Positions 2,957 to 46,698 of a DNA stretch of 64,000 nucleotides are shown piece by piece; the stretch's first letter is position 1; each line of letters starts with the position of its first letter. A model generated the notes under the pieces. The model saw nothing but the letters and a program-made list of their open reading frames with translations, did not search any database and was not told the origin of the DNA. Made by a program: the position numbers and the translations under genes. The DNA comes from an uncultured Desulfobacteraceae bacterium. Its GTDB lineage: Bacteria > Desulfobacterota > Syntrophobacteria > BM002. The stretch lies in the NCBI GenBank assembly GCA_964346905.1, contig CAYFXH010000001.1, positions 1,280 through 65,279 on the forward strand, written 5' to 3'.

Positions 2957-3062
2957 GATATTCGAAATTCTCGAGCCTTGCACCTTGTACCTTGCGCCTT
3001 CTGCCCGCTGCCCTCTGCCTTCTGCTCCATGCTCTATGCCCCATGCCCCATGCTCCCTGCTA
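2957..3062. repeat. Phased degenerate heptanucleotide tandem array (ccttgca/ccttgta/ccttgcg/ccttctg/cccgctg/ccctctg/.../ccccatg x2)
   Basis: About 12 consecutive 7-nt units kept in phase, seen directly; non-coding region 2430-3275. Confidence 0.7.
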
Positions 3063-3921: not shown

Positions 3922-3952
3922 AGGGTGGGCGATGCCCACCCTACGTTTTTCT
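3922..3952 (+). terminator. Rho-independent terminator-like hairpin (AGGGTGGGC-GAT-GCCCACCCT followed by ACGTTTTTCT)
   Basis: 9-bp GC-rich perfect stem, 3-nt loop, T-run; 20 nt after stop of 3276..3902. The same palindrome recurs at 8951-8967. Confidence 0.5.
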
Positions 3953-3960
3953 AAAACGGT

Positions 3961-4079
3961 TAAAATCTAAAATCCTCAATTCCCACATTCGCAGTTCGAA
4001 ATTCGAAATTCGAAATTACTTCCCTATGCCCCATGCTCTATGCCCTATGCCCTATGCCTGCTTTAGCCACCTTAGACAC
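3961..4079. repeat. Phased heptamer tandem array (taaaatc x2 ... tcgaaat x3 ... ctatgcc x4 ...), about 17 units
   Basis: Units stay in 7-nt register across 119 nt; same words (tcgaaat, ccctatg) recur at 5569-6050, 7086-7140 and 7741-7960. Confidence 0.7.
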
Positions 4080-4080
4080 C

Positions 4081-5499
4081 TCACATAAGTGCGCTGGCCG
4101 CTGCACGGGCTATTTCAAGAAGATAGCGTGGGAATACACCCACCACCACCATTACGGTTACCAGACCCCCCGTGAGCACCTTGGTGGGAATGGACAATTG
4201 AAGTCGAGGCAAACGTTCATCCGACTCTAACAGGTAGGCGGCCCTGACTATCAAAATGTAGTAATACAGGGAAATTACCACATTGACCATTGCGATGAGC
4301 ACTAACATGAAGTACCCCTTTTTCATGGCGGCGATAAAGACCAGAAATTTGGCGGTGAAGCCGATGGTCGGGGGAATGCCGGCCAGTCCGAACATTCCGA
4401 GCATCAGGGCCATGGCAAGCATGGGGGAGCGGCGGTGTAATCCTGCCAGTTGGGCAATCTGCAAGTCACTGCCGTCATATGCCACCTTCACCACCACCAG
4501 AAAGCAGGTAAACTTCATCACTAGATAGGCCACAGCATAAAAAATCGCACCGGCATAGCCGTTTTGATTCATGCTGAGAATCCCGATCAGAACGTAGCCG
4601 GCATGGGAAATGCTTGAGTACGCCAACAGCCGCTTCATGTCCTTCTGCACAATCGCCACCAAATTCCCCAAGGTCATTGAGGCTATTGAAAGCGTAACCA
4701 GCACGTGAGCCAGATAGGTGCTGCTACCTGTGCTCAGGGCTACCGTCCTCATAAGGATTGCCACCGCCGCAACCTTGGAGGCCGTGGCAATATAGGCGGT
4801 GACCTGATTGGCAGCCCCCTGGTATGCGTCCGGGGCCCAGAAATGAAATGGGAAGACGGCAAGCTTAAAGAAGAAGCCGCACAGAGTGAGGAGCAACCCG
4901 ATGATGGCTGCCGGCCTCCCAATTGCACCGGGAAGCACCTTGATAATTTCCGCCACATAGGTGGTGTGGATAACCCCGTAGAGTGAGGCAATGCCAAAAA
5001 GCATCACCGCCGAGGCAAAAGCTCCCACCAGGAAATACTTAATGCCCGACTCCACATGTACGCCGTAACCCCTCCTGAGAGGAACCAATATGTAGAGCGA
5101 ATAACTGGAGAGTTCCAGAGCGACGTAGATGGTCAGCAACTCAACGCTGCTTACCAGTAGCATCATCGCCAGGGTGCATGTGCTCAAAAGGAGGTAGAAT
5201 TCTGGGTGGTGCCGCTCCTCTATACCATTAAGCTCAGAGCAGATACAGATCACGAGAAACAGACCCATGGCCAGAATGACCTTGAAAACCTGAGAAAAGA
5301 GATCCACCCGATAGACCTTAAAAAAGAGCGTTCCTTCCAGCCTAACTGAGGCCAAACACACTGCCACACCCACAGAGGCCAGGAAGAGGGCGATGAAGTA
5401 ATCCCTCCTAGGATTGGGTCGCACCACCAAAGCCAGGCTAAAGAAAACCGCGATCATGAACAAGAAATATAATTCAGGTATGAAGAGAGACCAATTCAC
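4081..5499 (-). CDS. nuoN: NADH-quinone oxidoreductase subunit N
   Basis: 472 aa, 14 TM-like segments; FPFHFWAPDAYQGA, ATASKVAA, KRLLAYSSISHAGY motifs align to NuoN (E. coli FHLWTPDVYQGAP / KRLLGYSSISHLGY). Confidence 0.85.
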   Translation of the reverse strand: MNWSLFIPELYFLFMIAVFFSLALVVRPNPRRDYFIALFLASVGVAVCLASVRLEGTLFFKVYRVDLFSQVFKVILAMGLFLVICICSELNGIEERHHPEFYLLLSTCTLAMMLLVSSVELLTIYVALELSSYSLYILVPLRRGYGVHVESGIKYFLVGAFASAVMLFGIASLYGVIHTTYVAEIIKVLPGAIGRPAAIIGLLLTLCGFFFKLAVFPFHFWAPDAYQGAANQVTAYIATASKVAAVAILMRTVALSTGSSTYLAHVLVTLSIASMTLGNLVAIVQKDMKRLLAYSSISHAGYVLIGILSMNQNGYAGAIFYAVAYLVMKFTCFLVVVKVAYDGSDLQIAQLAGLHRRSPMLAMALMLGMFGLAGIPPTIGFTAKFLVFIAAMKKGYFMLVLIAMVNVVISLYYYILIVRAAYLLESDERLPRLQLSIPTKVLTGGLVTVMVVVGVFPRYLLEIARAAASALM

Positions 5500-5568: not shown

Positions 5569-5625
5569 TTAAATTCGAAATACGAAGCACGAAACAAATC
5601 CGAAATACGAATGTTCAAATGCTCC
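5569..5625. repeat. Heptamer array (cgaaata/cgaagca/cgaaaca/aatccga/aatacga); left arm of inverted repeat flanking 4HB gene
   Basis: Reverse-complementary in composition to 5976-6050 (gatttcg/aatttcg units). Confidence 0.6.
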
Positions 5626-5630
5626 AAAGA

Positions 5631-5996
5631 CTACTGACTCTTCTGCAATATGGCACCGAAAATATTCATCAGTTCGGTAGCTTCAATGATCAAAGTGTCT
5701 CGATCTTTTTCCTGTTCTTGATCTTTATTAGTGTCGACCAACCTTAGCCAATACCGGCTTTCTTTGGCCTCTTTACGGCAGATCTTGATTCGCATAATGA
5801 AGTCTTTTTTGCTGAGAGACTCATTAGCTTCAATGTAGTTCGATCCAACAGAGCCAGATGCCTTAACCAATTGTTTTCCATCTTCGATATTTGTAATAGT
5901 CCTCGGTAGTCTCTTTACGAAGGCCCTGACTTCCCTGGCAAAAGCCAGGGTGCGGTCTTCAAAATCATACTGTTTTGAATTTCGAATTTTGGACAT
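5631..5996 (-). CDS. Four-helix-bundle protein (23S rRNA intervening-sequence protein family, TIGR02436-like)
   Basis: 121 aa; motif KASGSVGSNYIEANES plus KICRKEAKESRYWLRL helices typical of IVS-encoded 4HB proteins. Sits on the same strand as the nuo genes, between nuoK and nuoN, flanked by inverted heptamer arrays. Confidence 0.7.
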   Translation of the reverse strand: MSKIRNSKQYDFEDRTLAFAREVRAFVKRLPRTITNIEDGKQLVKASGSVGSNYIEANESLSKKDFIMRIKICRKEAKESRYWLRLVDTNKDQEQEKDRDTLIIEATELMNIFGAILQKSQ

Positions 5997-6050: not shown

Positions 6051-6101
6051 TGTCCGTGTCTCCTTTTTCCCTTTTTTTTCTCGTTGCGATCGCCAGTTCC
6101 T

Positions 6102-6944: not shown

Positions 6945-7140
6945 TCAGTAGTCAGTAGTCAGTAGTCAGAGAGGCATAGGGCTCAAGGCTCAGGGCGCAA
7001 GGAAAAAATTTCGTCTTCTACTGCCTTTAGCCTTACGCCTTGTGCCGTGCGCCTTTCATCAATCTGCAATCTGCAATCTCAAATCTGAAATCCCCTAATT
7101 CCGAAATCCGCAATTACTTCCCTATGCATGCTGTCTCGAG
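6945..7140. repeat. Long composite heptamer array in nuoJ-nuoI spacer (cagtagt x3, gctcaag/gctcagg, tagcctt/acgcctt/gcgcctt, tctgcaa x2/tctcaaa/tctgaaa, ccgaaat)
   Basis: Seen directly; ~200 nt of non-coding DNA inside an otherwise tightly coupled operon. Confidence 0.7.
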
Positions 7141-7740: not shown

Positions 7741-7960
7741 CCTTGCAAATTCGAATATCGAAATTCGAAATCCGAAACAATGTTCAAATTCTCAAAATTG
7801 GTCCTCCGGATCCCCCAGCATACGGGCGGGTCCCAGTTTCGAATGACCAAAACTTAATACAAAGGCTTTCATTCAGAGTTGTTTTGAATATTGGAGCATT
7901 TGAATTTCGAATTTGTTTGGAAATTCGTGCTTCGGATTTCGGATTTTTAGATCAAAAGAA
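7741..7960. repeat. Inverted pair of tcgaaat/ccgaaac heptamer arrays (7741-7800 and 7890-7950) in nuoI-nuoH spacer
   Basis: Arms are reverse complements in composition (attcgaa... vs ...ttcggat). ORF 7743..8042 inside it is judged spurious. Confidence 0.6.
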
Positions 7961-8930
7961 CTGCTCCCGTCACCATGATGTTCAGCAGGGCCAGGGGTAC
8001 CAGAACCTTCCAGCCCAGGTGCATGAGTTGATCATAGCGTAGTCGTGGCAAAGTCCCCCTCACCCAAATCATGAGGATGGCAACCACAAGGATTTTAATC
8101 AGGAACCACACCACTGGTGGCAGTATGGGCCCGCGCCATCCCCCCAAGAAAAAGACGGCCACTAGCGCCCCGAATACCTGCAGATTCACGTATTCTCCGA
8201 GGAAAAACAGGCCAAAGCGCATTCCGCTATATTCTGTGTGGTAACCGGCGCCCAGTTCATTTTCCGCCTCTGGAAGGTCGAAGGGAATACGCTTGGTCTC
8301 GGCCATGGCGCTGATAAGAAAGATGGCGAAAGAGACCGGCTGCACCAGAACGAAGGGATAGTCAGCCTGGGCGCGGACAATGTCCACCAGGCTGAAGGAA
8401 CGTGCCAGCATAACTATGGGAACCAAGGAAAGCCCCAAAGAGAGCTCGTAGCTGATCATTTGGGCGGCACCACGAATACCACCCAAAAGACTGTATTTTG
8501 AGTTTGAAGCCCAGCCTCCCAGGGCAACTCCGTACACACCCAGAGAAGCCAGAGCAAACACATAAAGCAATCCTACATTCAGATCCGTGATCACAAGAGG
8601 AATTGTCTTCCCGAGAACGGTTACACTGGCACCAAAGGGGACAACTGCAAAGATAAGCAGTGCCTCGGCAGCAACCACTGCCGGAGCCAAAAGGAAAAGA
8701 GCACGGTCTGCGGCCTCAGGAACCGTATCCTCTTTGGTCAACATCTTGACAGTGTCGGCAAGGGGTTGCAGCAAGCCAAACTTTCCAGCCCGATTCGGCC
8801 CGTAGCGAATTTGTAGCCGGCCAAGGAATTTTCTCTCCAGCAGCACCAGGTAGGCAGCCAGGAGAAGCAGTCCAACCAGAACCACCCCCAGTTTTACGAT
8901 GAGCAGGATGAATCCGATAAGCCAGGTCAT
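7947..8930 (-). CDS. nuoH: NADH-quinone oxidoreductase subunit H
   Basis: 327 aa, 8 TM; LLERKFLGRLQIRYGPNR and EAENELGAGYHTEYSGMRFGLFFLGEY motifs. Confidence 0.9.
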   Translation of the reverse strand: MTWLIGFILLIVKLGVVLVGLLLLAAYLVLLERKFLGRLQIRYGPNRAGKFGLLQPLADTVKMLTKEDTVPEAADRALFLLAPAVVAAEALLIFAVVPFGASVTVLGKTIPLVITDLNVGLLYVFALASLGVYGVALGGWASNSKYSLLGGIRGAAQMISYELSLGLSLVPIVMLARSFSLVDIVRAQADYPFVLVQPVSFAIFLISAMAETKRIPFDLPEAENELGAGYHTEYSGMRFGLFFLGEYVNLQVFGALVAVFFLGGWRGPILPPVVWFLIKILVVAILMIWVRGTLPRLRYDQLMHLGWKVLVPLALLNIMVTGAVLLI

Positions 8931-8950
8931 AGGATTCCGTTCTCATGGAT

Positions 8951-8967
8951 GGTGGGCATCGCCCACC
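8951..8967. repeat. GGTGGGCATCGCCCACC palindrome (second copy of the 3922-3942 hairpin)
   Basis: Exact reverse complement of the element at 3924-3940. Confidence 0.6.
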
Positions 8968-8984
8968 AAACGGTTATTTCATGA

Positions 8985-9172
8985 ATCCTGCAGGAGCAAC
9001 GTCCTCGTTGCGATCCCACAATCCACAAACTACACAATCGTTTATCGCCAGCAGCCTCCGGCCCGGCTTTCAGGCCGGAGGGAGGGGCCTTATCGCAAGC
9101 AGAGCTTGCTCTACAGGAGTTCTCATCACATGCATTGAGCAACGCTTTATGGCGGGCACAGAGGCCCGCCCT
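8985..9172. repeat. Hairpin-rich intercistronic element, copy 1 (nuoG-nuoH spacer)
   Basis: Shares blocks cctgCaggagcaAcgtCctcgttgcgatcc and tttaTggcgggcacagaggcccgccct with copy 2 at 11768-11912; internal hairpins ctccggcc...ggccggag, gcaagc-agag-cttgc, ggcgggc...gcccgcc. Confidence 0.6.
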
Positions 9173-9214
9173 ACCGGTCTCTCATTGAAGTATGGGTAAT
9201 TCATCTTGACCATT

Positions 9215-11725
9215 TTAAGCACGTATCTTCTCTATCTCCTCAAACCTTACGAACTTCGGCGACCTCTCGATCTTCTGCCACTCCAGGAGGTGATGCCGCG
9301 GCAAAACCATCACCCCGGGAGCCATATTTTCCACAGCACAGAGATTGACTTCCAGACTACCTCTATCCAGTTCGATCGAGACCGTATCTCCATGGGTCAG
9401 ACCCAATCCGGTGGCATCATCGATGTGCATGAAGAGACAGGGGCTCTTTTCCAACCGACCGAGGGGTGGTGAGTGAGCGGAGAGTTCTTCGGTGCCAAAG
9501 GTCCAGTCAGTCAGAAGGAGTTCCAGGCCATCACCAGGAGCATGGCTTTTTTTCATCTCCTTCAGCCAGTCCAGCGAGAAGCGGTGAATATCTTCCTTAC
9601 TTACCCGGAGCCGGACCCCGTCATCCGGGAGTTCATCGATTGGCGGGATATCTGCGAATGCGGGATTGGCCTCAGCTAGCCAACCCCACACGCTCGCACG
9701 CGTTGTTTCCTCACCAACCTCCAGCTCTCCATTGGCAAGCTGTGCGAGAACTTCCCAGGCAGCCCGCAACTCCCCACCTGGAATGACACTGCTGTAAACC
9801 CGCGGCGGATGGTTGCCGCCACTAATGCGAGCGAGAGGGATTCCACCCGGATATACCTTCACTGCTGCCTGAACCCTGCCTTCCTGGTTTATGAAAACCC
9901 CACCTGTCTCATAGAGAGTTGATACAGGTAGAAAGACATGCGCCTGGTGCGCAGTTAGAGAATCTCGATAATCCAAAACAACAAGCAAATCGAGCTTTTC
10001 AATAGCAAGGTCCAACCTTTGCCGATCCTGAAAATGGCCAAAAGGATCGCTTTCGGCCACGATCAACCCCTTAACCGTTCCTTGCTCGATATCCTCGAGT
10101 GTCTTCGAGAAGGAACTCGCTTCAGCTGAAAGCACTGACGAGCCGAAACCGTTTGCTCCGGGCATCAGGTAAAAAAGTCCTGCTGGCTTGTTCATTGCCC
10201 GCAAAAGTAAGGCGTGGTCAGCTGCCAAAGCTGGAGTGGTCTGGCGTACGACCTCAGTGCCGCATACAATTATTGGTCGCTGACTCTCTCGAAGTTCTTG
10301 TGCTAATATTGATACCTGCTCCCGAAGCGGAGGAGCAGCACGTTTCAGGGCCGGCATCGCCTCGTAAAAATCGACTGCGGCCGGTCCAAGTTCTTTCGCC
10401 GCTTCACGGTGGACAGCCTGTTTTATCAGTAAACTGCAGTAGAGGTTGACCTCAGCCAATCCCACTGGCATGTGTTCGAAATCAAAGGGCAAGGAGATCG
10501 GTCGAGGGTCGATGACAGCTATCGTGCCGCCGGCTCGTCGGGCCTGTCTCATTGCCAAGGCCAGCATGGGCGCCTCGTTGATGGGATCGGCTCCCACCAC
10601 AAGGATGAAATCAGCTCCTTCCAACTCCCGCAGAGAAACCGTTAAGTCCGGTTCCAGCCTTGAGGTTGCTATTTCCGCCTTTATCGCCAGGGATTGATCC
10701 ATAAAGTATGACGGACCGTTCCATCCTTTTGATTGACATAGCTGCTCGAGCATTGCCTGAGTTTCGAGAGTGCTGCGTCCTGAGCCCACGCAACCGATAG
10801 CCTCAGCTCCTTCCCTCTTGCTAATCTGTTCCAGCCTTTCATGGACGGTTCTGATAGCCTGGTGGTAAGTAACCTCCTCGCCTTCAACCAGTGACCGCCA
10901 TGGTCTCTTCTCGTCGCTTGCATAGGCGAAGCCGTAGCGGCCCCGATCACATATAAAGTAGCCGTTTACCGCCTCACTGTATCGTGCTTCCTGCCGCACT
11001 ACCTCCCGGTAACGAATACTTGCTATGGTATGACATCCTAAAGAGCAGTTGATACAGAGAGAAGGGCTACGCTCATAGTCCCACCGCCTACCGAAAAACC
11101 GAGATGGTTTATCGGTGTAAACACCAGTGGGGCAGATATCGGCCAGATTGCCGGCAAAGGGGCTTTTTAGGGTGCCATCTTTGTACCGGCCAAAATAGGT
11201 GCGGTCGCCTATCTGCATCACGCCCAGGTCGTCATACCCCGCAAATTCTTGATAGAACCGCGAACACCGGTAGCAGTGAATGCAGCGATTCATTTCATGC
11301 TGGAGCAACGGACCCAGGTACTGATCTTGGTAAGTCCGTTTCTTCCCCAGATATCTTCGGATACCGTGCCCCCCCGAAATCGTCATATCCTGCAATAGGC
11401 AGTGCCCCCCTTCATCGCAGACAGGACAATCATGCGGATGATGCAGCATGAGCCATTCGATTACGTATTTACGAAATTCCACCGATTCTTCGTCGGTGGT
11501 TGATACCACCATGCCGTTCTTAGCATCGATCATGCAGCTCATCTGCACGCCTTTAAACGGCCCTTCCACGAACTTCACGGCACAAACCCGGCAGGCCCCC
11601 ACAGACCCCAGTCCGGGATGATAGCAAAAGCGAGGAATCATAATGTCCAGCTGTTCCGCGGCCTCGATCACCTTTGTCCCTTCGGGGACCTCTATTTCTC
11701 GATCATCGATAATTATCTTAACCAT
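9215..11725 (-). CDS. nuoG: NADH-quinone oxidoreductase subunit G (75 kDa, 2Fe-2S/4Fe-4S, molybdopterin-like domain)
   Basis: 836 aa; N-terminus MVKIIIDDREIEVPEGTKVIEAAEQLDIMIPRFCYHPGLGSVGACRVCAV, CPVCDEGGHC and CIHCYRCSRF cluster motifs. Confidence 0.9.
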   Translation of the reverse strand: MVKIIIDDREIEVPEGTKVIEAAEQLDIMIPRFCYHPGLGSVGACRVCAVKFVEGPFKGVQMSCMIDAKNGMVVSTTDEESVEFRKYVIEWLMLHHPHDCPVCDEGGHCLLQDMTISGGHGIRRYLGKKRTYQDQYLGPLLQHEMNRCIHCYRCSRFYQEFAGYDDLGVMQIGDRTYFGRYKDGTLKSPFAGNLADICPTGVYTDKPSRFFGRRWDYERSPSLCINCSLGCHTIASIRYREVVRQEARYSEAVNGYFICDRGRYGFAYASDEKRPWRSLVEGEEVTYHQAIRTVHERLEQISKREGAEAIGCVGSGRSTLETQAMLEQLCQSKGWNGPSYFMDQSLAIKAEIATSRLEPDLTVSLRELEGADFILVVGADPINEAPMLALAMRQARRAGGTIAVIDPRPISLPFDFEHMPVGLAEVNLYCSLLIKQAVHREAAKELGPAAVDFYEAMPALKRAAPPLREQVSILAQELRESQRPIIVCGTEVVRQTTPALAADHALLLRAMNKPAGLFYLMPGANGFGSSVLSAEASSFSKTLEDIEQGTVKGLIVAESDPFGHFQDRQRLDLAIEKLDLLVVLDYRDSLTAHQAHVFLPVSTLYETGGVFINQEGRVQAAVKVYPGGIPLARISGGNHPPRVYSSVIPGGELRAAWEVLAQLANGELEVGEETTRASVWGWLAEANPAFADIPPIDELPDDGVRLRVSKEDIHRFSLDWLKEMKKSHAPGDGLELLLTDWTFGTEELSAHSPPLGRLEKSPCLFMHIDDATGLGLTHGDTVSIELDRGSLEVNLCAVENMAPGVMVLPRHHLLEWQKIERSPKFVRFEEIEKIRA

Positions 11726-11767
11726 TGGTCAATAAAAGGGGTCAGGCAGTTCGAGTTAATGCTCGTT

Positions 11768-11912
11768 GTCCTGTAGGAGCACCGTGCTCGTTGCGATCCA
11801 TTCGCATGTGTACCAATTCATCTATCAAATCGCGACCTGGAGGTCGCTCCTACAGACAATTTACCAATGATGGCTTTTAGGCGGGCACAGGAGGCTCCGC
11901 CCTATTGAGATT
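11768..11912. repeat. Hairpin-rich intercistronic element, copy 2 (nuoF-nuoG spacer)
   Basis: Blocks cctgTaggagcaCcgtGctcgttgcgatcc and tttaggcgggcacaggaggctccgccct; long-range complementarity ctgtaggagc ... gctcctacag. Confidence 0.6.
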
Positions 11913-11976
11913 ATCTACCTTTAGACGCATTAGGCACTTCAGCTCACTTTAGGCATGTCTAGCCTGACAGCTGACA

Positions 11977-13254
11977 TCACTTCCTAAAAGGACATCTCTT
12001 TTGACTAATGTGCTCCCTGACCTCATCTTCAAAGTAGGTAATGAGGCTCTCAACCGGTGATACGGCACCGGGGGCGAATGCACAGTAAGAACTCCAGAGA
12101 TGCTTGCTCATCTGCTGAAGCATTGGTATGAACTCCTCCCTGCCCTCACCTTCTTCCAAACGTCGGAGCAGATCCCGGATGTACGGCAGACCTTCCCGGC
12201 ACGGCGTACACCAACCGCAGGACTCTCGGGCAAAAAACTCGGTTAAGTTCAGGGTGGCGGCAACAAGACACGTCTTCTGGTCGAAGACCATGATTGCACC
12301 GGTACCGAGTCTATGTCCAACTGCGCGCATGGGATCAAAGTCCATTTCAATGTCGTAGAACTCCTTGGGCAGATAGCGGGTGGAAGCGCCGCCCGGCAGA
12401 CAGGCCTTATATTCGGAACCTTCTGGCATCCCGCCAGCATGGACTTCAATGATTTCACTCAGCTGCACTCCCATGGGTAGTTCTACGCAGCCCGGCTTAT
12501 TGACCCTGCCACTGATACAGAAAATCTTGGTACCCGCACCGGTTTCATTTATTGCCAGGCTTTTGTACCACTCAGAGCCGTTTCTGATGATATGCGGTAT
12601 GTTTGCGAGAGTTTCCACGTTCTGAAGTACGGTGGGCTTGTCCCAAAGCCCCTTTTCCGTAGGATAGGGAGGTGGTTGCTGCGGGTTCGGCCTCTTGCCC
12701 ATCAGGGCATTTAATTGAGCCGTGACCTCGCCGCAGATGTATCTACCTCCACTGCGGTGGACAACAATGTCCAGGCTATAGTCGTTTCCCAGGATGTTTT
12801 TTCCCAAAAAGCCTGCCTCTTTGGCAATCTTGATCTCCCTTTCGAGAATTCTTGCCGCGCTCTCGTATTCAGGTCGAATGAAAATAATGCCCTTCTCCGC
12901 CTTTGCCCCGTATCCATCGATGATCATGCCCTCAATAATCATGTGGGGGTCCGTATGGATCAAGACCCGATCTTTGAATGTTCCTGGCTCCATCTCATCG
13001 GCATTACACACGACGTATCTCGGATACGGCGCATCATCCGCTACCGTCATCAACTTCCTTCCGGCTGGAAAGGCGGCGCCACCCCTACCCAGCAGAATGG
13101 CATCCAAGAGTACCTGCTGCACGTCCTTGTAGGAGTAGTTGCGCATTACCTCAGTCAATGCCTGGTAACCGCCGCTCTGCTGATATTCCTCAAGCGTGGC
13201 AATTCGGTCCGGCTTGCGATTTTGAAAGAGAACTTGCGGATAGCTCGGGGCCAT
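11977..13254 (-). CDS. nuoF: NADH-quinone oxidoreductase subunit F (51 kDa, FMN/NADH-binding)
   Basis: 425 aa; GRGGAAFPAGRK (FMN site), ESCGWCTPCREG 4Fe-4S motif. Confidence 0.9.
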   Translation of the reverse strand: MAPSYPQVLFQNRKPDRIATLEEYQQSGGYQALTEVMRNYSYKDVQQVLLDAILLGRGGAAFPAGRKLMTVADDAPYPRYVVCNADEMEPGTFKDRVLIHTDPHMIIEGMIIDGYGAKAEKGIIFIRPEYESAARILEREIKIAKEAGFLGKNILGNDYSLDIVVHRSGGRYICGEVTAQLNALMGKRPNPQQPPPYPTEKGLWDKPTVLQNVETLANIPHIIRNGSEWYKSLAINETGAGTKIFCISGRVNKPGCVELPMGVQLSEIIEVHAGGMPEGSEYKACLPGGASTRYLPKEFYDIEMDFDPMRAVGHRLGTGAIMVFDQKTCLVAATLNLTEFFARESCGWCTPCREGLPYIRDLLRRLEEGEGREEFIPMLQQMSKHLWSSYCAFAPGAVSPVESLITYFEDEVREHISQKRCPFRK

Positions 13255-13296: not shown

Positions 13297-13378
13297 AGGT
13301 GCGATGTGGGATATGGGATGTGTACTGCCAGAAGACGGGCTTCGAAGAATCTCTATCTCACATCTCACATCCTCGCTC
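13297..13378. repeat. Hairpin element built from GATGTGR heptamers (gcgatgtgggatatgggatgtg ... atctcacatctcacatcctcgc)
   Basis: Inverted arms seen directly in the nuoE-nuoF spacer; same word family as 18155-18245. Confidence 0.6.
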
Positions 13379-13421: not shown

Positions 13422-13970
13422 CTAAGCCTGTGATTTGAGCTTGTCTAAGATCTCATCTAGTTTCTCGGGCGTAAGCGGTCCGTATACTTTCTTGTTGATT
13501 AACATAGCTGGTGCTCTATCGCAGTAGCCAATGCAGCACACCGGCAATAGGGTAAACAGTCCGTCTGCCGTGGTTTCCCCCATCTCTATCCCTAATTTCC
13601 GGCAGAGGTGCTCAATAATTGACTCATGTCCTTCCATCCAGCAGATGACACTGTCACAGATGTGGATAACGTATTTTCCAACCGGCTCTCTGTAGACGAA
13701 GGTGTAGAACGTAGCGAGTTCTTCCACCTCCAGGGGAGACATATTCAGGAGTGCGGCCACCTCCTCAACAGCCTCATCGCTCAGATAGCCGTAGTGGTCT
13801 TGGACAGCGAACATCACATCCACCACCAGCTCCCGGGGATGTTCGACGGTGGCTATGTGTTCTTCGAGGGAATTTTTCAACGGTTCAGGCAACATTGGAT
13901 GTCTAGACCCACATGAGCTCAATGGAGTGCTGGAGTAACAGTACTCCACTACTCCCGTTTTCCTGGCCAC
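13422..13970 (-). CDS. nuoE: NADH-quinone oxidoreductase subunit E (24 kDa, thioredoxin-like 2Fe-2S)
   Basis: 182 aa; CDSVIC...CCIGYCDRAP cysteine pattern; ORF-track start is GTG, true start uncertain. Confidence 0.85.
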   Translation of the reverse strand: MARKTGVVEYCYSSTPLSSCGSRHPMLPEPLKNSLEEHIATVEHPRELVVDVMFAVQDHYGYLSDEAVEEVAALLNMSPLEVEELATFYTFVYREPVGKYVIHICDSVICWMEGHESIIEHLCRKLGIEMGETTADGLFTLLPVCCIGYCDRAPAMLINKKVYGPLTPEKLDEILDKLKSQA

Positions 13971-14014: not shown

Positions 14015-16405
14015 TTATCTATCTATATCCGGCAGAATATAGTCGATGGAACCTACGATGGCGATGAGGTCTGCAATGGTCTCATTCACAGCCATCAAGG
14101 GCATCACCTGCACATTGGCAAATCCGGGTGCACGTATCCTCGTGCGATAGGAGTAGCCGACTCCGTCACTCACCACGTAATAGCCCTGTTCCCCCCGGGG
14201 GATCTCACAGGAACTGTAAGCTTCACCTTTGGGGATTTTGGGTCCACGGGTTACGTTGATAAAATGATGAATTAGGCTCTCTATGTCTTTGAGCATGTCC
14301 CCGCGCTCAGGGATCACATAGCGGTAATCGTCCGTGACGTACCGACCAGCAGGCATCTGCTCTGCGGCCTGTTCAATAATCCTCAAACTCTGGCGCATTT
14401 CTTCCACCCGCAACAGATAACGGGCATAACAATCTCCTTCCGTGGCGGTGGGCACTTCAAACTCAAAGTTCTCGTAACCAGAATATGGAAAATTCTTTCG
14501 CAGATCCCACTCCAGACCGCAGGCACGCAAGTTTGGACCACTCACGCCCCAGTCAATGGAATCTTCCAAGGAGATGCGGCCGATGCCCTGGGTTCGGGCC
14601 TTAAAGATGGCGTTCTTGGTTATGAGTGTTTCGTACTCTTTGAGCCGCTCAGGGAATATTTTGACAAAGTAATCCACCGCTTCTTTCCAACCCTCCGGCA
14701 AGTCAGCGGCAACACCTCCCAACCGGAACCAGGACGGATGCAATCGTCCTCCGGTTATGAGTTCAATAATGTCGAGAATTATCTCCCGTTCGCGGAAGGT
14801 ATAGAAATTGGGGGTCATGGCTCCCACATCGTGGGCCATGGTGGCAAAAAAGACGAGGTGGTTGCTGAGCCGGAAAAACTCGCTGAGCATCACCCGAATA
14901 ACCTGAGCCCGATCAGGAACATTGATATCGGCAAGTGCTTCCACCGCCATTACGTATGGGAGATTATTGGCAGCCCCAGCCAGGTAATCCACTCGATCCG
15001 TGTATGGAATATATTGGTGCCAGGTTTGGCGTTCGCCGATTTTTTCCGCCGCCCGATGGTGGTAGCCGATGTCCATGTCAAGTTCGGTGATCTCTTCACC
15101 TTCAAGTGAGACAATAAAGCGCATCAGGCCGTGGGTACTGACGTGGTGAGGACCGATGTTTAATACCAGCTGGTGCTCCTTTCCATCTCTCCTAATATAG
15201 ATACCACCATCCAGGGGTTGGTGCTGCTGGGCATCGGCCAGGGTATAAGGCTCCATTTCCGTTGCACGGCCAGGATAGCTCTTTCTCAGGGGATGGCCCT
15301 CCCAGTCGTGCGGCATAAGAATGCGACCGAGATTCGGATGACCCTCAAACCGGATCCCAAACATGTCGTAGACTTCCCGTTCATACCAGCTTGCAGACGG
15401 CCAGATATCGGTGACACTTTTGGTAACCGGTTCCTCACCGTTTAGGGCAACCTTTACACGCAACCGGCAGGCGGGCTCGAATGAGAGCAGGTGATAGACC
15501 AGGGTGTAGTCCGAATAACCAGCTCGCTCCCTCCGGGCGGATTCATCAATTGCGGTGAGATCGTCCAAGCGTCGGTACCTGGGAGTCGCTTCTCCTTTGA
15601 GAAAACGCAGAACATCCTTAAACCGTTCGTGCGGTACCTGGAATGTGGGCATGTCCGAGGTCTGTGGCGTCTGCTGGATATCGTCCCCAAACCGCTCTTG
15701 CAAAACATTTGCGAGGCTCGTATCATCCTCACTCAATTCTATTCGCCGCGGCCGGGGTGTCCACATGAGATCGGAGCGGCTGTCCCAAAATTTCGGTGGA
15801 GCCACTGAAGTCCCTCTGATGGCAACACCTTGCATGCCCGGGCCACGCGGGTCTCGAGACTTTGTCTGGCCATCGACGAGAATGGGCGTCTGAGTGCCCT
15901 GGGTACCCCCTGGGAGGTGGAAAATGGCACGAGTCGGTCGTTCTTCCGAGACTATTTTTTCTTGCAAAAGCACAAGCCCTTGGAGTACAGCCTCAGGTCT
16001 GGGTGGGCAGCCAGGAATATAGACATCCACCGGCAATATCTGATCCACCCCCTGCACTACGCTATAGGCGTCATACATGCCACCACAGTTGGAGCACGAT
16101 CCCATAGAGATGACCCACTTGGGTTCCGCCATCTGCTCGTAAAGCCGCAAAACAACAGGGGCAATCTTCTTGAAAACAGTACCGGATATTATTAAGAGAT
16201 CCGCCTGCCGGGGTGAAGGCCGGAGCACCTCCGCCCCGAAGCGGGCCATGTCGTACCGGGCGGTAAAAGCGGTAGCCTCCTCCACGAAGCAGCAGGAAAG
16301 CCCAAAAAACATGGGCCAGAGACTGTACTTACGGGCCCAGTTTATCAGGAAATCGGCCCCCTGCAGCAACCGGTTGTTCAATGCTTTTTCGACGTTGGCC
16401 CCCAC
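14015..16405 (-). CDS. nuoBCD: Fused NADH-quinone oxidoreductase subunits B, C and D in one ORF
   Basis: 796 aa single ORF. Residues ~1-170 are NuoB ([14 protein letters not shown]...GCPPRPE), then a ~100-aa linker, then NuoC ([19 protein letters not shown]), then NuoD ([10 protein letters not shown]...[10 protein letters not shown]). Confidence 0.85.
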
Positions 16406-18154: not shown

Positions 18155-18268
18155 ATTGCTGATATGCGATGTGAGATGTGAGATGCAGAATATATAATCC
18201 AAGACCCTTCCTGAACACCCACATCGCATATCAGACATCCGACATTTGAATTTGTTTCGAACTTCGGT
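18155..18268. repeat. GATGTGA-heptamer hairpin element (ctgatatgcgatgtgagatgtgagatgcag ... cacccacatcgcatatcagacatccgacat) plus adjacent ttgaatttgtttcg unit
   Basis: Inverted arms with a TATATAAT-containing loop (18189-18196); seen directly. Confidence 0.6.
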
Positions 18269-18319
18269 CTCTTGTGGCCGATACGGAGATCGGCCCTACG
18301 AAAAGAAGGTGGACCAGTT

Positions 18320-21100: not shown

Positions 21101-21265
21101 TCAAATTCGAAGCTAGAATGTCGAAATCCGAAACAATTCTCAAATGTTCAAAATTCAAATGATCAAAACTAAGACACCAATTTCTCTAGTGCCAATTTCT
21201 AGCATTGGAGAATTCGGTTTTTGAATTTGTTTCGTGCTTCGTGCTTCGGATTTAGAATTTGGATT
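21101..21265. repeat. Inverted pair of cgaaatc/ttcaaat heptamer arrays between sucA and sucB
   Basis: Left arm attcgaagctagaatgtcgaaatccgaaacaattctcaaatgttcaaaattcaaatg; right arm ttcggtttttgaatttgtttcgtgcttcgtgcttcggatttagaatttgg. Confidence 0.6.
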
Positions 21266-37091: not shown

Positions 37092-37691
37092 ATGATAAAA
37101 GCTATCATTTTCGATTTCGGCCGGGTCATCTCGACCCAAAAGCCGCCATCCCTCTTCAGCGGCTATGAAAAGGATTTGGGACTCCCCCCCGGAACGCTCA
37201 ACCCTATTATGTTCGCTAGCCGGGCCTGGCAAGATACCTTGATTGGCCACAAGACCATTGAAGAGTTCTGGGACGAAATTGGGCCCAAGCTTGGACTGAA
37301 TACTCCCGAGGAAATTGAGGAGTTCCGCCGTCGGTACCGGGCTGATGAAGCGGTTAACGAGGGTGTGCTGAATCTACTCCATCGGCTGCACGGCCATTAC
37401 AAGCTGGCGGTACTCTCCAATGCACCGCCTGGCCTGGGCCAATGGCTGGGCGACTGGGGGATGCTCCATCTGTTCGATGTGCTGTTCTGCTCCGGAGACG
37501 AAGGCGTGGTAAAGCCAGAGCCGGCTGCTTTTACTATCACCCTAGAACGACTCGGCGTGGAGCCCAATGAAGCAGTGTTCATTGACGATACACTGGAACA
37601 CGTGGAGGCAGCCAGGACACTGGGGCTGCACGGAATACTGTTCACCACCGCAGAAGCTCTGGAGGCGGAATTAGATGGCTTACTTGCTTGA
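37092..37691 (+). CDS. HAD-superfamily hydrolase (subfamily IA)
   Basis: 199 aa; motif I IKAIIFDFGRV (DxD-type), SNAPP motif II, GDE...D motif IV region. Confidence 0.75.
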   Translation: MIKAIIFDFGRVISTQKPPSLFSGYEKDLGLPPGTLNPIMFASRAWQDTLIGHKTIEEFWDEIGPKLGLNTPEEIEEFRRRYRADEAVNEGVLNLLHRLHGHYKLAVLSNAPPGLGQWLGDWGMLHLFDVLFCSGDEGVVKPEPAAFTITLERLGVEPNEAVFIDDTLEHVEAARTLGLHGILFTTAEALEAELDGLLA

Positions 37692-37712
37692 AGACCAGAT
37701 GAGGGAGGAAAG

Positions 37713-38363
37713 ATGGCGACCGTTGTGAGCAATGACCACATTAAAATTGATCGGTTAGAATTGGGGCCGTTCGGCACTAATGGGTACATCTTAACCTGCC
37801 AAAAGACACAAGAGAGTGTGGTGATTGACGCCCCCGGCCAAGTCGACAGAGTCCTGGAAGCGCTGGAGGATACACACCCCCAATACATCCTAATTACTCA
37901 TGACCATTTTGATCATGTGGGTGGTCTTTCCCGGTTGAAATCAGCCTTGAACGTTCCCGTCGCTGCCCACCCTGCAGATGGTGACGGGCTTCCCCTACCT
38001 GCGGATATTCTCCTACATGACGGTGAGGTACTATCCTTTGGAGCCAGAGAGCTTACGGTGTTGCACACACCGGGCCACACTCTGGGAAGCATATGCTTGC
38101 TGACCGGGAATTACTTGATTGCGGGGGATACGTTATTTCCGGGAGGTCCGGGTAAAACCCAATCACCCGCAGACTTCCGGCAGATTATTGAATCCATAAC
38201 CCAGAAGATTTTCACATTGCCGGACAACACCCACGTGTATCCCGGACACGGGGAAGCAACAACGGTCAAGGAGGCAAAAAAACAGTACGAGGTTTTCTCA
38301 ACCCGACCGCACGATCCGGATCTTTGCGGGGATGTGGTTTGGGATAAATCGCAGAGCGCATAG
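37713..38363 (+). CDS. MBL-fold metallo-hydrolase
   Basis: 216 aa; ITHDHFDHVGG (HxHxDH) and downstream His/Asp ligands. Confidence 0.8.
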   Translation: MATVVSNDHIKIDRLELGPFGTNGYILTCQKTQESVVIDAPGQVDRVLEALEDTHPQYILITHDHFDHVGGLSRLKSALNVPVAAHPADGDGLPLPADILLHDGEVLSFGARELTVLHTPGHTLGSICLLTGNYLIAGDTLFPGGPGKTQSPADFRQIIESITQKIFTLPDNTHVYPGHGEATTVKEAKKQYEVFSTRPHDPDLCGDVVWDKSQSA

Positions 38364-38498
38364 CGCAGAGCGTATATTCAAAAACTGCAAAGTTATTTTA
38401 AATATCGCAAACAAATGCTAGTCGTTGAATTTACCAGAATGATTTTAGTCTAGCCGTTTTTCTAAACGCTATGCGCTTTGCGCTCTGCGCTATGCGAG
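38350..38498. repeat. Inverted heptamer repeat (cgcagagcgcatagcgcagagcg ... cgctatgcgctttgcgctctgcgctatgcg) bracketing the convergent gene ends
   Basis: Arms at 38350-38373 and 38467-38498 are near-perfect reverse complements; candidate bidirectional terminator/REP element. Confidence 0.5.
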
Positions 38499-38499
38499 C

Positions 38500-39195
38500 T
38501 TACCAACCTATTACCACTCGGTGAAAACCTTCCGCCAGTTCAAAATCCTCCCCTTCAGCCATCTCCCTGCACCGCTCTCTCAGCCAATCTTCAGGGTCCG
38601 GATTGGGGAATCCCTGTACCTGGCTCTGGTGGCAACGTAGGGCCGCAATTTTAAGATCAAAGGTATCGGTGATGTCCGAGCGATAGTTAATGTCTTCCGC
38701 CGCCCAGAATAAGATCTCATCTACATTGTGAGGCTCCAAACCTTCCTCTAACAAATCAGGGTAGGCAAGATGATCCCGAGAGTACGGGAAAACTGCATCG
38801 AGAGTAACCTGCCCGGCAATGCGATGGTCGCGATGCCAGAGGTAACGACGGTAGGGATCCGAGGTCACCACGATCCTGGGCTGGTACATGCGTATAAAGC
38901 GAACGATCTGCTTACGAAATTCCGGCGTGTCTTCCAACTCCTGATCCGGGTATCCCAGGAATATTACTTCTCGGACCCCAAGGATCTTGGCCGCAGCCTG
39001 TTGCTCCTTTTTTCTGATTTCGGCCAATTGTTCAGGTTTGAGGCTCCGGTCGCTGGTTCCCTTGTCGCCATTGGTGCAGACAACGTAGACAACCTGCTTT
39101 CCTTCTCTGGTCCAGCGCGCTACTGTTCCTGCCACCCCGAATTCGGCGTCATCCGGATGAGCTGTTACCACCAGTACGTCCGTTGCTTTCGTCAC
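38500..39195 (-). CDS. PIG-L/LmbE-family N-acetylglucosaminyl deacetylase (MshB/BshB-like)
   Basis: Start chosen at GTG (Val71 of ORF 38500..39405) with AGGAGG RBS 6 nt upstream, giving 232 aa; signature VLVVTAHPDDAEFGVAGT and downstream His/Asp. Confidence 0.75.
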   Translation of the reverse strand: MTKATDVLVVTAHPDDAEFGVAGTVARWTREGKQVVYVVCTNGDKGTSDRSLKPEQLAEIRKKEQQAAAKILGVREVIFLGYPDQELEDTPEFRKQIVRFIRMYQPRIVVTSDPYRRYLWHRDHRIAGQVTLDAVFPYSRDHLAYPDLLEEGLEPHNVDEILFWAAEDINYRSDITDTFDLKIAALRCHQSQVQGFPNPDPEDWLRERCREMAEGEDFELAEGFHRVVIGW

Positions 39196-46540: not shown

Positions 46541-46576
46541 TTCAGATTGCAGATTTTAGATTGCAGATTTTAGATC
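46541..46576. repeat. Tandem 14-mer (cagattttagattg x2) 3 direction of the DMT gene / far upstream of the ECF operon
   Basis: Seen directly. Confidence 0.5.
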
Positions 46577-46698
46577 TAGGAACTAAGACCAAGAGTGTGC
46601 CAGTGATAATCACATGTGTGTTTTCAAAAAGGACATGTTGAACGTGCATCGAAAAAAACCACCTCCTAGATATTCACAATCTCAAATCTCAAATGGTC

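Follow-up and report, generated by a model that had tools for sequence, protein, structure and literature searches.

Three units in each of two nuo spacers

The 64-kb stretch of DNA analysed here (the window) carries nuo genes on its minus strand, with nuoG standing between two clusters of repeats (Table 1). The nuoG-nuoH (G-H) spacer occupies 8931-9214 (284 nt) and the nuoF-nuoG (F-G) spacer 11726-11976 (251 nt). A first-pass annotation had located the repeats correctly in these spacers, its limits of 8985-9172 and 11768-11912 being slightly too narrow according to the gene calls. As it had noted, stable hairpins abound in both: the RNA minimum free energy (MFE) of the G-H spacer is -112.8 kcal/mol (z -4.4), that of the F-G spacer -78.7 kcal/mol (z -2.2).

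Table 1. Genes, repeat units and related features of the window
Feature	Position	Strand	Details
type C unit	3923-3944	-	GTAGGGTGGGCATCGCCCACCC; downstream of antiporter-like nuo gene
exact 12-mer	6080-6091	+	CTCGTTGCGATC; 3' half of type A unit
nuoH	7947-8930	-	
type C-like hairpin, degenerate head	8947-8968	+	GGATGGTGGGCATCGCCCACCA
type A unit (block 1, G-H copy)	8987-9016	+	CCTGCAGGAGC-AACG-TCCT-CGTT-GCGATCC
REPIN-like inverted type A doublet, G-H	8987-9121		GTAG heads outside; linker 75 nt
unique GC-rich hairpin in G-H doublet linker	9049-9089		9-bp stem at 9055-9081
type A unit, inverted partner (G-H)	9092-9121	-	CTCCTGTAG-AGC-AAGC-TCTG-GCTT-GCGATAA; seen by eye
type B unit (block 2, G-H copy)	9146-9174	-	GTAGGGCGGGC-CTCTGT-GCCCGCC-ATAAA
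nuoG	9215-11725	-	Pfam; separates two REP clusters
type A unit (block 1, F-G copy)	11770-11799	+	CCTGTAGGAGC-ACCG-TGCT-CGTT-GCGATCC
REPIN-like inverted type A doublet, F-G	11770-11858		linker ~30 nt
type A unit, inverted partner (F-G)	11828-11858	-	GTCTGTAGGAGC-GACC-TCCA-GGTC-GCGATTT
type B unit, decayed (block 2, F-G copy)	11875-11904	-	ATAGGGCGGAGCCTCCTGTGCCCGCCTAAAA
nuoF	11977-13254	-	
type D unit	18276-18299	-	GTAGGGCCGATCTCCGTATCGGCC; stands alone

The blocks of 25-30 nt that the annotation had seen in both spacers are indeed non-random. The two copies of block 1 are identical at 27 of 30 positions, and its degenerate pattern matches twice in the window and never in 100 shuffles; the copies of block 2 agree at 26 positions in an alignment with two 1-nt indels (z=7.1 versus shuffles). 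Because intergenic DNA often contains GC-rich hairpins, one might suspect that the likeness is due to chance or that these are ordinary intrinsic terminators or attenuators, but this explanation is almost certainly wrong in view of the empty shuffles, the fact that no hairpin is followed by a T-run on the transcribed strand, and the hundreds of homologous copies elsewhere.

Each spacer holds a cluster of three independent 25-30-nt units. A contiguous element of ~150 nt, as originally proposed, is contradicted by segment-by-segment alignment with shuffles, in which the likeness between the spacers is confined to three short units: besides block 2 (type B), arms 1 and 2 of type A give z=2.9 and z=10.3, while the two linkers and the two flanks are no more alike than expected by chance (z between -0.7 and +0.9). 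When the spacers were aligned globally with MAFFT (68% column identity), block 2 fell out of register, and the segment-wise alignment was used instead. The unit absent from the earlier annotation is a second copy of block 1, inverted and more diverged, which both spacers contain with its head on the minus strand; each spacer thus carries a REPIN-like inverted doublet. In the mRNA sense, both spacers present a type B singlet followed by the inverted type A doublet.

This shared order and orientation of the three units (B, A, inverted A) would also be expected if one spacer had arisen from the other by duplication of a ~150-nt segment, followed by divergence. Such a local duplication is very improbable, as the units are 87-90% identical between the spacers while the linkers and flanks do not rise above shuffles, and as the stems of the first type A arms fall into two subfamilies (GCAAGC and GCGACC). 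Moreover, in one relative a type B unit adjoins a type A doublet in another spacer and with the arms in the opposite order, and trimers consisting of a singleton beside a dimer are common in published REP families (PMC3733652).

In total, the window contains nine units of four types (A-D), all within its first 18.3 kb and all between ORFs. All nine fold as DNA, with an MFE from -3.8 to -10.9 kcal/mol and z <= -2.5 in seven. The GTAG head is kept in six; it is mutated to GCAG in the G-H copy of block 1, to ATAG in the F-G type B unit and to GATG in the type C-like hairpin. A simple scan of the window for GTAG followed by a perfect hairpin gave 8 matches versus 5.2 in Markov shuffles, which is not significant alone; it served only to point to units of types B, C and D. 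The head-only pattern CTRYAGGAGC shows no enrichment in the window (16 matches versus 12 expected).

Type A follows the design (C)TGTAGGAGC-AAss-loop-ssTT-GCGAT, that is, a TGTAGGAGC head, a 6-bp stem (GCAAss/ssTTGC), a 3-4-nt loop and a GAT tail. In the G-H copy of block 1, the stem is intact beneath the mutated head; the unit scores 37.8 bits with covariance model R1, in whose training set it is included, and folds with -7.4 kcal/mol (z -3.8). Its core GGAGCAACGTCCTCGTTGCGAT recurs identically in loci L031, L069, L075, L098, L112 and L113 of Syntrophobacterales/Desulfobacterota metagenome-assembled genomes (MAGs). Its inverted partner has lost one base after GTAG and reaches 22 bits (E 0.006) as a unit outside the training set; it folds with -5.8 kcal/mol and nearly matches the right arms of the doublets around the transposase (RAYT) gene of locus L107. 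The F-G copy of block 1 has an intact head and a canonical stem broken by a substitution (36 bits, in the training set), and its fold is weak (-3.8 kcal/mol, z -1.1), whereas the stem of its partner is fully compensated relative to the other arms (39.5 bits, in the training set; -6.5 kcal/mol). As a whole, the F-G doublet folds into a single long hairpin with its two heads paired (-17.4 kcal/mol, z -3.7). The linker of the G-H doublet is much longer because a unique 41-nt hairpin is inserted in it, bordered by the direct repeat TTATCGC (9042-9048 and 9090-9096); no second copy of this hairpin occurs among 214 fetched loci.

Types B, C and D consist of GTAGG and a GC-rich stem of 6-8 bp, type B having the design GTAGGGCGGGCCTCTGTGCCCGCC. 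The G-H type B unit folds well (-9.5 kcal/mol, z -4.4), and members of its family flank the RAYT gene of locus L002; in the F-G counterpart, the stem is disturbed by two 1-nt insertions. The type C-like hairpin and the intact type C unit share the same stem-loop. Finally, what had been described as a partial third copy near 6080 comes down to an exact 12-mer that lacks both the GTAG head and the 5' stem arm and is not detected by the covariance model of the unit; at best, it is possibly a remnant of a type A unit.

Copies in other genomes and associated RAYT genes

Further copies and structural covariation, which the first-pass annotation had suggested seeking, were both found in other genomes. 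A scan of public genomes located type A in at least 112 stretches, and a scan of public metagenomes located type B in at least 120 stretches (at least 126 matches); these counts are lower bounds and refer to a subset of genomes. Strict type A copies number at least 26, 13 and 7 in three MAGs. The type A scan pattern left nine positions free. Since the patterns of the scans included GTAG, the head is not independent evidence there. At the free stem positions of type A, both pairs are Watson-Crick in 99 of the 121 matches listed, versus 7.6 expected, with six pair combinations, and 91.5% of cells are paired in the matches listed. The covariation score is 0.317 versus 0.120 in shuffles, none of 500 of which reach it, and slid partners give at most 0.081. 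For type B, both free stem pairs are Watson-Crick in 103 of the 126 matches listed (7.9 expected). The stems have thus changed in a compensatory manner.

The copies favour extragenic positions: 63 of the 99 hairpin-type matches listed (64%) lie outside open frames of at least 150 codons, a crude proxy for genes, though such frames cover 86% of the loci. The 112 genome loci listed hold 217 units, among which there are 63 doublets with the heads outside, their gaps being mostly 8-50 nt. The same units are found in unrelated intergenic contexts across several phyla.

Several loci link the units to RAYT genes. In L107, from a Syntrophobacterales MAG with 82% nucleotide identity to the window at 38466-39180, a 152-aa gene has type A doublets on both sides. 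In L002, a 150-aa gene is enclosed in the same way by D/B doublets, types B and D forming the two arms of one doublet, and in L090 and L182 a RAYT gene adjoins a unit. On the NCBIfam model NF047646, 'REP-associated tyrosine transposase' (cut-off 80), the proteins of L002, L107 and L090 reach 115-124 bits, and the L107 protein matches E. coli TnpA-REP (PDB 4ER8) with E 3.6e-11. The RAYTs of L107 and L090 are only 47% identical, yet the type A units there are near-identical; judging from these sequences, the REP is much better conserved than its transposase. Recent horizontal transfer was considered for the type A units found across phyla and is unsupported, the associated RAYTs being so divergent.

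The window itself contains no RAYT gene by tblastn, and its sites syntenic to the RAYT loci of both relatives are empty. The solitary type D unit is identical to the units around the RAYT gene in L001/L002 and stands where a RAYT gene with D/B doublets on its flanks is found in relatives L001-L003.

Resemblance to known REP systems

REPs are non-autonomous repeats in which a short hairpin is preceded by a conserved GTAG head. The cognate enzyme, a single-copy HUH/Y1 transposase (RAYT), binds and cuts single-stranded REP DNA and disperses REPs and REPINs into extragenic space. Taken together, the evidence identifies the blocks shared by the nuo spacers as REP/REPIN clusters with a probability of about 0.9. 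The original label, a REP/ERIC-like mobile structured element, was half right. Its REP part agrees with the GTAG head and hairpin, the inverted doublets, the recurrence with compensatory changes and the position around RAYT genes in relatives. An ERIC is conserved as a single stretch of ~127 bp built around a central inverted repeat; like ERIC/IRU, the nuo-spacer sequences are intergenic, transcribed, imperfect palindromes, but nothing longer than ~30 nt is conserved in them, and their linkers are unrelated.

A conserved GTAG tetranucleotide at one end characterizes REPs (PMC3733652; PMC3479197); further marks of the class are an imperfect palindrome of ~20-40 nt that can fold into a stem-loop, an extragenic position and numerous copies dispersed in a genome. 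Published examples include TGTAGGAGCGGATTCATCCGCGAT of Pseudomonas entomophila, GTAGGGTGGGCTTcAGCCCACC of Haemophilus influenzae and GTAGGGcGGGTAAGCG..CACCCgCC of Enterobacter sakazakii (PMC2817692, Table 1). In the GTAG-1/2 families, a dinucleotide separates GTAG from the stem, a 3-bp tail is conserved, and the members of dimers are 20-100 bp apart (PMC3733652). Type A resembles the Pseudomonas/Xanthomonas-type REPs (GTAG-1; Di Nocera 2013; Nunvar 2010) in its head and the dinucleotide before the stem, in a stem that is short and perfect, a loop of 3-4 nt and a GCGAT/GCGAA tail, and in the inverted doublets with outward heads, which in relatives surround a single RAYT gene. It differs from them in an AT-richer stem (GCAAss/ssTTGC versus GCGGGC and similar), in the missing RAYT gene of the 64-kb window, and in its hosts, which instead of Gammaproteobacteria comprise Syntrophobacterales-like Desulfobacterota that are uncultured, together with MAGs from several further phyla. 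REPIN doublets of Pseudomonas/Xanthomonas-type REPs were reportedly the subject of work by Bertels and Rainey in 2011.

Types B, C and D are closer to the GTAGG-headed REPs of Haemophilus and enterobacteria, in which GTAGG likewise abuts a GC-rich stem of 6-8 bp; the stem of type C at 3923-3944 is nearly identical to that of the Haemophilus REP (PMC2817692). The loops of B, C and D (CTCYGY or ATC) differ from those of the Haemophilus, enterobacterial and E. coli REPs, as does the pairing of B with D in one doublet. As in E. coli BIMEs, several REP subtypes are clustered in one intercistronic spacer in partly alternating orientation, but there are no conserved linker motifs between the nuo-spacer units, and the composition varies from spacer to spacer.

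In E. coli, a REP is bound and cleaved only if every base of GTAG is present (PMC3479197). If E. coli TnpA-REP is a guide, the local units would have been put in place by a RAYT-type enzyme, and several of them (those with a head GCAG, ATAG or GATG, or a broken stem) would now be immobile, decaying relics. With heads or stems mutated in half of them, the local units are of doubtful current mobility. Mobility of the units receives indirect support from their occupancy of different nuo spacers in relatives.

The nuo operons of relatives and the question of regulation

In relatives with 72-76% NuoG identity, all four types are present, but in different nuo spacers. In their orthologous F-G and G-H spacers there are arrays of heptamers or a unit of type C; types A, B and D are found in the D-E, H-I and I-J spacers. 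Some units point along the direction of transcription and others against it, and all nuo spacers in the lineage are unusually long, roughly 170-285 nt.

The first-pass annotation had also offered a cis-regulatory RNA motif modulating the segmental stability of the nuo mRNA. Spelled out as a dedicated motif of the operon, this would mean that the hairpins exist to control segmental stability or readthrough in the nuoEFG and nuoH-N portions of the transcript. The units do lie in transcribed, stably folding spacers (z -4.4 and -2.2), these spacers are long throughout the lineage, and in E. coli a REP within an operon makes the upstream message more stable and causes partial termination of transcription before the downstream gene (bioRxiv 10.64898/2026.03.23.713779). 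Nevertheless, a dedicated regulatory role as the reason for these sequences is quite unlikely. Types A and B are missing from the orthologous spacers of relatives and present in others, the units ignore the direction of transcription, and they are also found beside RAYT genes and at unrelated intergenic sites in several phyla. In addition, both F-G copies known to the first-pass annotation have decayed, by a broken stem or a mutated head. Rfam 15 gives no gathering-score match in the 64 kb, and a permissive search of 8900-12000 gives one unrelated sub-threshold match (E 1.2). Terminator-like sites are absent from the minus strand within either spacer.

Read as REP/REPIN clusters, the units would also fold in the mRNA, because they are inside the nuo transcript, and as a side effect may act there as weak 3'-exonuclease barriers or partial Rho-dependent attenuators. 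As REPs have context-dependent effects on mRNA in E. coli (bioRxiv 10.64898/2026.03.23.713779), a secondary effect of this kind on the nuo mRNA is possible by analogy; if it occurs, it would add one more case of context-dependent REP regulation.

The expanded spacers of each relative hold a different mix of four REP families and period-7 arrays. It may be imagined that the nuo operon of this Syntrophobacterales-like lineage is a tolerated or favoured landing pad and that, if the turnover is selected, REP hairpins have been domesticated as interchangeable intra-operon 'dials' tuning the ratio of NuoEFG to the membrane subunits. This proposal is unlikely; were it true, the dials would work by blocking exonucleases and by partial attenuation, in organisms whose complex I serves a syntrophic, low-energy metabolism.

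The main import of the analysis concerns annotation: the label that fits the nuo spacers is REP/REPIN clusters, and neither a novel riboregulator nor an element of 150 nt should be recorded there. Uncultured Desulfobacterota, which are little represented in the REP literature consulted, contain REP/RAYT systems whose heads resemble those of Pseudomonas and Haemophilus, and so do several candidate phyla. A scan of viral contigs gave 17 single matches, mostly in unrelated coding repeats, and only L007 and L008 resemble type A hairpins.

Repeat units in two nuo spacers

A nuo (complex I) cluster of Pfam-confirmed genes lies on the minus strand of the window; its closest NuoG relatives, at most 76% identical, are proteins of uncultured Deltaproteobacteria and Syntrophobacteria MAGs. 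In two of its spacers, the first-pass annotation had described two hairpin-rich copies of one element of about 150 nt, either REP/ERIC-like and mobile or a cis-regulatory RNA of the nuo mRNA. This observation is real but mis-framed. The first shared block (8987-9016 versus 11770-11799; family D16 of the repeat finder) is identical at 27 of 30 positions, and a degenerate 30-mer for it gave two matches in the window and none in any of 100 shuffles, while the second (9146-9174 versus 11875-11904) shows 26 identities with two 1-nt indels (z=7.1). Both spacers also fold more stably than shuffles. A single 150-nt element, however, is not seen: in the segment-wise alignment, the likeness is confined to three short units (the second block, z=7.1, and two arms of the first type, z=2.9 and z=10.3), with the two linkers and both flanks at chance level. 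The supposed partial third copy near 6080 is an exact 12-mer only (6080-6091), lacks the head and the 5′ arm, and is missed by the covariance model.

Read on the head strand, all units are built alike, with a short hairpin after a GTAG(G) head, and fall into four types, with the first block belonging to type A and the second to type B. Since each spacer bears a second type A unit, inverted, more diverged, and absent from the first-pass annotation (9092-9121 and 11828-11858), each contains an inverted type A doublet with GTAG heads outward; the order in the mRNA sense is B, A, inverted A in both. The covariance model built on the type A alignment detects four units in the window and no more; the one at 9092-9115 (22 bits, E 0.006) lay outside its training set. 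The model also picks up the doublets in relatives.

The linker of the nuoG-nuoH doublet holds a unique 41-nt GC-rich hairpin with a 9-bp stem, with the 7-nt direct repeat TTATCGC on either side. It looks like an insertion with target duplication; no second copy was found among the 214 public loci fetched for comparison (designated L001 onward). An 84-codon ORF crosses the same spacer on the non-transcribed strand; consisting wholly of REP units and linkers, it is most likely spurious and a trap for gene callers.

Features of the nuo cluster and repeats in the window
Feature	Position	Strand	Remark
nuoE	13422-13970	-	Pfam
nuoF	11977-13254	-	Pfam
nuoG	9215-11725	-	Pfam
nuoH	7947-8930	-	Pfam
nuoI, nuoJ, nuoK	nuo cluster	-	Pfam
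nuoG-nuoH spacer	8931-9214		284 nt
nuoF-nuoG spacer	11726-11976		251 nt
Type A	8987-9016 (+), 9092-9121 (-), 11770-11799 (+), 11828-11858 (-)		(C)TGTAGGAGC-AAss-loop-ssTT-GCGAT
Type B	9146-9174, 11875-11904 (decayed)	-	GTAGGGCGGGC-CTCTGT-GCCCGCC
Type C	3923-3944 (-), 8947-8968 (+, degenerate head)		GTAGGGTGGGCATCGCCCACCC
Type D	18276-18299	-	GTAGGGCCGATCTCCGTATCGGCC
GC-rich hairpin	9049-9089		with repeats, 9042-9096
84-codon ORF	8945-9199	+	
23S_rRNA_IVP gene	5631-5996	-	Pfam PF05635
Period-7 arrays	2976-3061, 3987-4058, 5571-5611, 6945-7092, 7747-7777, 7931-7946, 13355-13371, 18168-18185, 21231-21248, 38350-38496, 46543-46694, 48922-49053		

Copies elsewhere and covariation of the stems

The first-pass annotation had named further copies and compensatory changes as checks on its reading, and both were found. 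A scan of one genome per GTDB species with the pattern TGTAGGAGCA-N9-TTGCGAT matched type A in at least 112 stretches, with at least 26, 13, and 7 strict copies in single MAGs. The two wholly free stem pairs are both Watson-Crick in 99 of the 121 matches listed, against 7.6 expected, and among these matches they occur in six combinations (AGC/GCT, ACC/GGT, ACG/CGT, ATC/GAT, ATT/AAT, and ACA/TGT). In the non-redundant alignment of the listed matches, 91.5% of cells are paired, and the covariation score is 0.317 versus 0.120 in shuffles (reached by 0 of 500), slid partners giving at most 0.081. For type B, a scan of a metagenome collection with four stem positions left free gave at least 126 matches in at least 120 stretches, both free pairs being complementary in 103 of the 126 listed (7.9 expected). 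Among 217 relaxed type A units listed, there are 63 doublets with heads outside, mostly with gaps of 8-50 nt, and although long open frames take up 86% of the loci, 64% of the listed hairpin-type hits fall outside them. Several MAGs of Syntrophobacterales and Desulfobacterota also share the exact core of the nuoG-nuoH type A copy (GGAGCAACGTCCTCGTTGCGAT).

Type A units that are nearly identical (GTAGGAGCAAssTCCYssTTGCGAT) were observed in the genome-scan loci L023-L134, from MAGs with the labels Desulfobacterota, Chromatiales, Cloacimonadota, WOR-3, Chloroflexota, Latescibacteria, and others.

RAYT genes and unit positions in relatives

The units belong to REP families that accompany genes of REP-associated tyrosine transposases (RAYTs). 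L107 is a contig from a Syntrophobacterales MAG and matches window 38466-39180 at 82% nucleotide identity; a gene of 152 aa on it is bordered on either side by type A doublets (GTAGGAGCAACCTCCYGGTTGCGAT, about 25 nt, then ATCGCAAGC..GCTTGCTCCTAC). The metagenome contigs L001-L003, whose NuoG is 76% identical, carry a 150-aa gene immediately upstream of their nuo operon, with doublets of type D facing type B on each side of it; in L090 (WOR-3) and L182, a similar gene adjoins a unit. The L002, L107, and L090 proteins match Pfam Y1_Tnp and reach 115-124 bits, against a cut-off of 80, with the NCBIfam model NF047646 ("REP-associated tyrosine transposase"); that of L107 also matches E. coli TnpA-REP (PDB 4ER8, E 3.6e-11). 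Identity between the L107 and L090 RAYTs is just 47%, so conservation is higher in the type A DNA element than in its enzyme.

No RAYT gene was found within the 64-kb window. The REPIN-RAYT-REPIN cassettes (REPIN, an inverted doublet of REP units) of L107 (2785-3513) and L002 (2937-3542) are both missing at its syntenic sites. Where L107 has its cassette, the same two neighbouring genes of the window are cleanly separated by about 25 nt (37676-37714); the site of the L002 cassette (18155-18299) has only the lone type D unit. The pattern suggests cassette gain in relatives or RAYT loss in the window's lineage.

The orthologous spacers of relatives have other content. Those of L001 and L002 contain period-7 arrays only; in L005, no REP unit or period-7 array occurs between nuoF and nuoG, and a type C unit occupies the nuoG-nuoH spacer. 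Units of types A, B, and D are found elsewhere in the nuo clusters of these relatives, in the D-E, H-I, and I-J spacers, among them a B unit beside an A doublet whose arms are in opposite order. Such non-conserved positions fit repeated independent insertion and loss, and fit neither a conserved regulatory site nor a duplicated 150-nt segment.

Known families and possible effects on nuo mRNA

Published REPs include those of Pseudomonas (e.g., TGTAGGAGCGGATTCATCCGCGAT), Haemophilus (GTAGGGTGGGCTTcAGCCCACC), and Enterobacter sakazakii (GTAGGGcGGGTAAGCG..CACCCgCC) described by Nunvar et al. (PMC2817692). The GTAG-tagged families of Di Nocera et al. have stems of 6-13 bp, dimers spaced by 20-100 bp, and trimers in which a singleton adjoins a dimer; in the GTAG-1/2 families, two nucleotides separate GTAG from the stem and a 3-bp tail is conserved (PMC3733652). 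Type A, GTAG-GA-stem-GAT, has exactly the GTAG-1/2 layout. The window units have the published REP anatomy and would work like classical REP/REPIN elements; wherever the sequence allows a test, they belong to that well-known kind. The REP-like half of the earlier reading is correct in kind. A high copy number per genome and a cognate RAYT were found only in relatives or other genomes. An ERIC identity was rejected, and the units correspond to no Rfam family. In the REP literature examined, we found no description of these particular REP families in Syntrophobacterales-like Desulfobacterota, nor of near-identical type A spread over Chromatiales, Cloacimonadota, WOR-3, and Chloroflexota MAGs.

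By analogy with E. coli, a RAYT would bind the hairpin and its 5′ GTAG on single-stranded DNA and cut nearby; there, each GTAG base is required for binding and cleavage (PMC3479197). Three heads in the window are mutated (GCAG at 8987-9016, ATAG at 11875-11904, and GATG at 8947-8968), and the stem of 11770-11799 is broken (-3.8 kcal/mol, z -1.1). On the E. coli analogy, these four copies have probably become relics that no longer move.

At the RNA level, no U-tracts follow the spacer hairpins, which are therefore not intrinsic terminators, and this identity was rejected. An intra-operon REP in E. coli stabilises the upstream message and causes partial Rho-dependent termination (bioRxiv 10.64898/2026.03.23.713779); by analogy, the spacer hairpins could incidentally shift nuoF/G/H ratios. 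A regulatory role as the primary explanation of the units is unsupported.

The layout of the nuo cluster looks unusual (genes 4081-5499 and 14015-16405, minus strand). It includes a 796-aa ORF with the length and position of the relatives' fused NuoB-C-D gene, and nuoK is followed by a single Proton_antipo_M (NuoL/M/N-like) gene and then an unrelated TPR gene; this layout is identical in relatives. Between nuoK and the antiporter-like gene lies a gene for a 121-aa protein of the 23S_rRNA_IVP four-helix-bundle family, not present at the corresponding place in L001 and L005.

Many intergenic spacers of the window, most nuo spacers among them, carry short tandem arrays that repeat every 7 nt, with units that vary (ATTCGAA, CCCTATG, CAATCTG, GATGTGA, CGCAGAG, and GCGGTCA), and similar arrays occur in the nuo spacers of relatives. 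They recall the STRR heptamers of cyanobacteria, although the host here is a Desulfobacterota-like genome.
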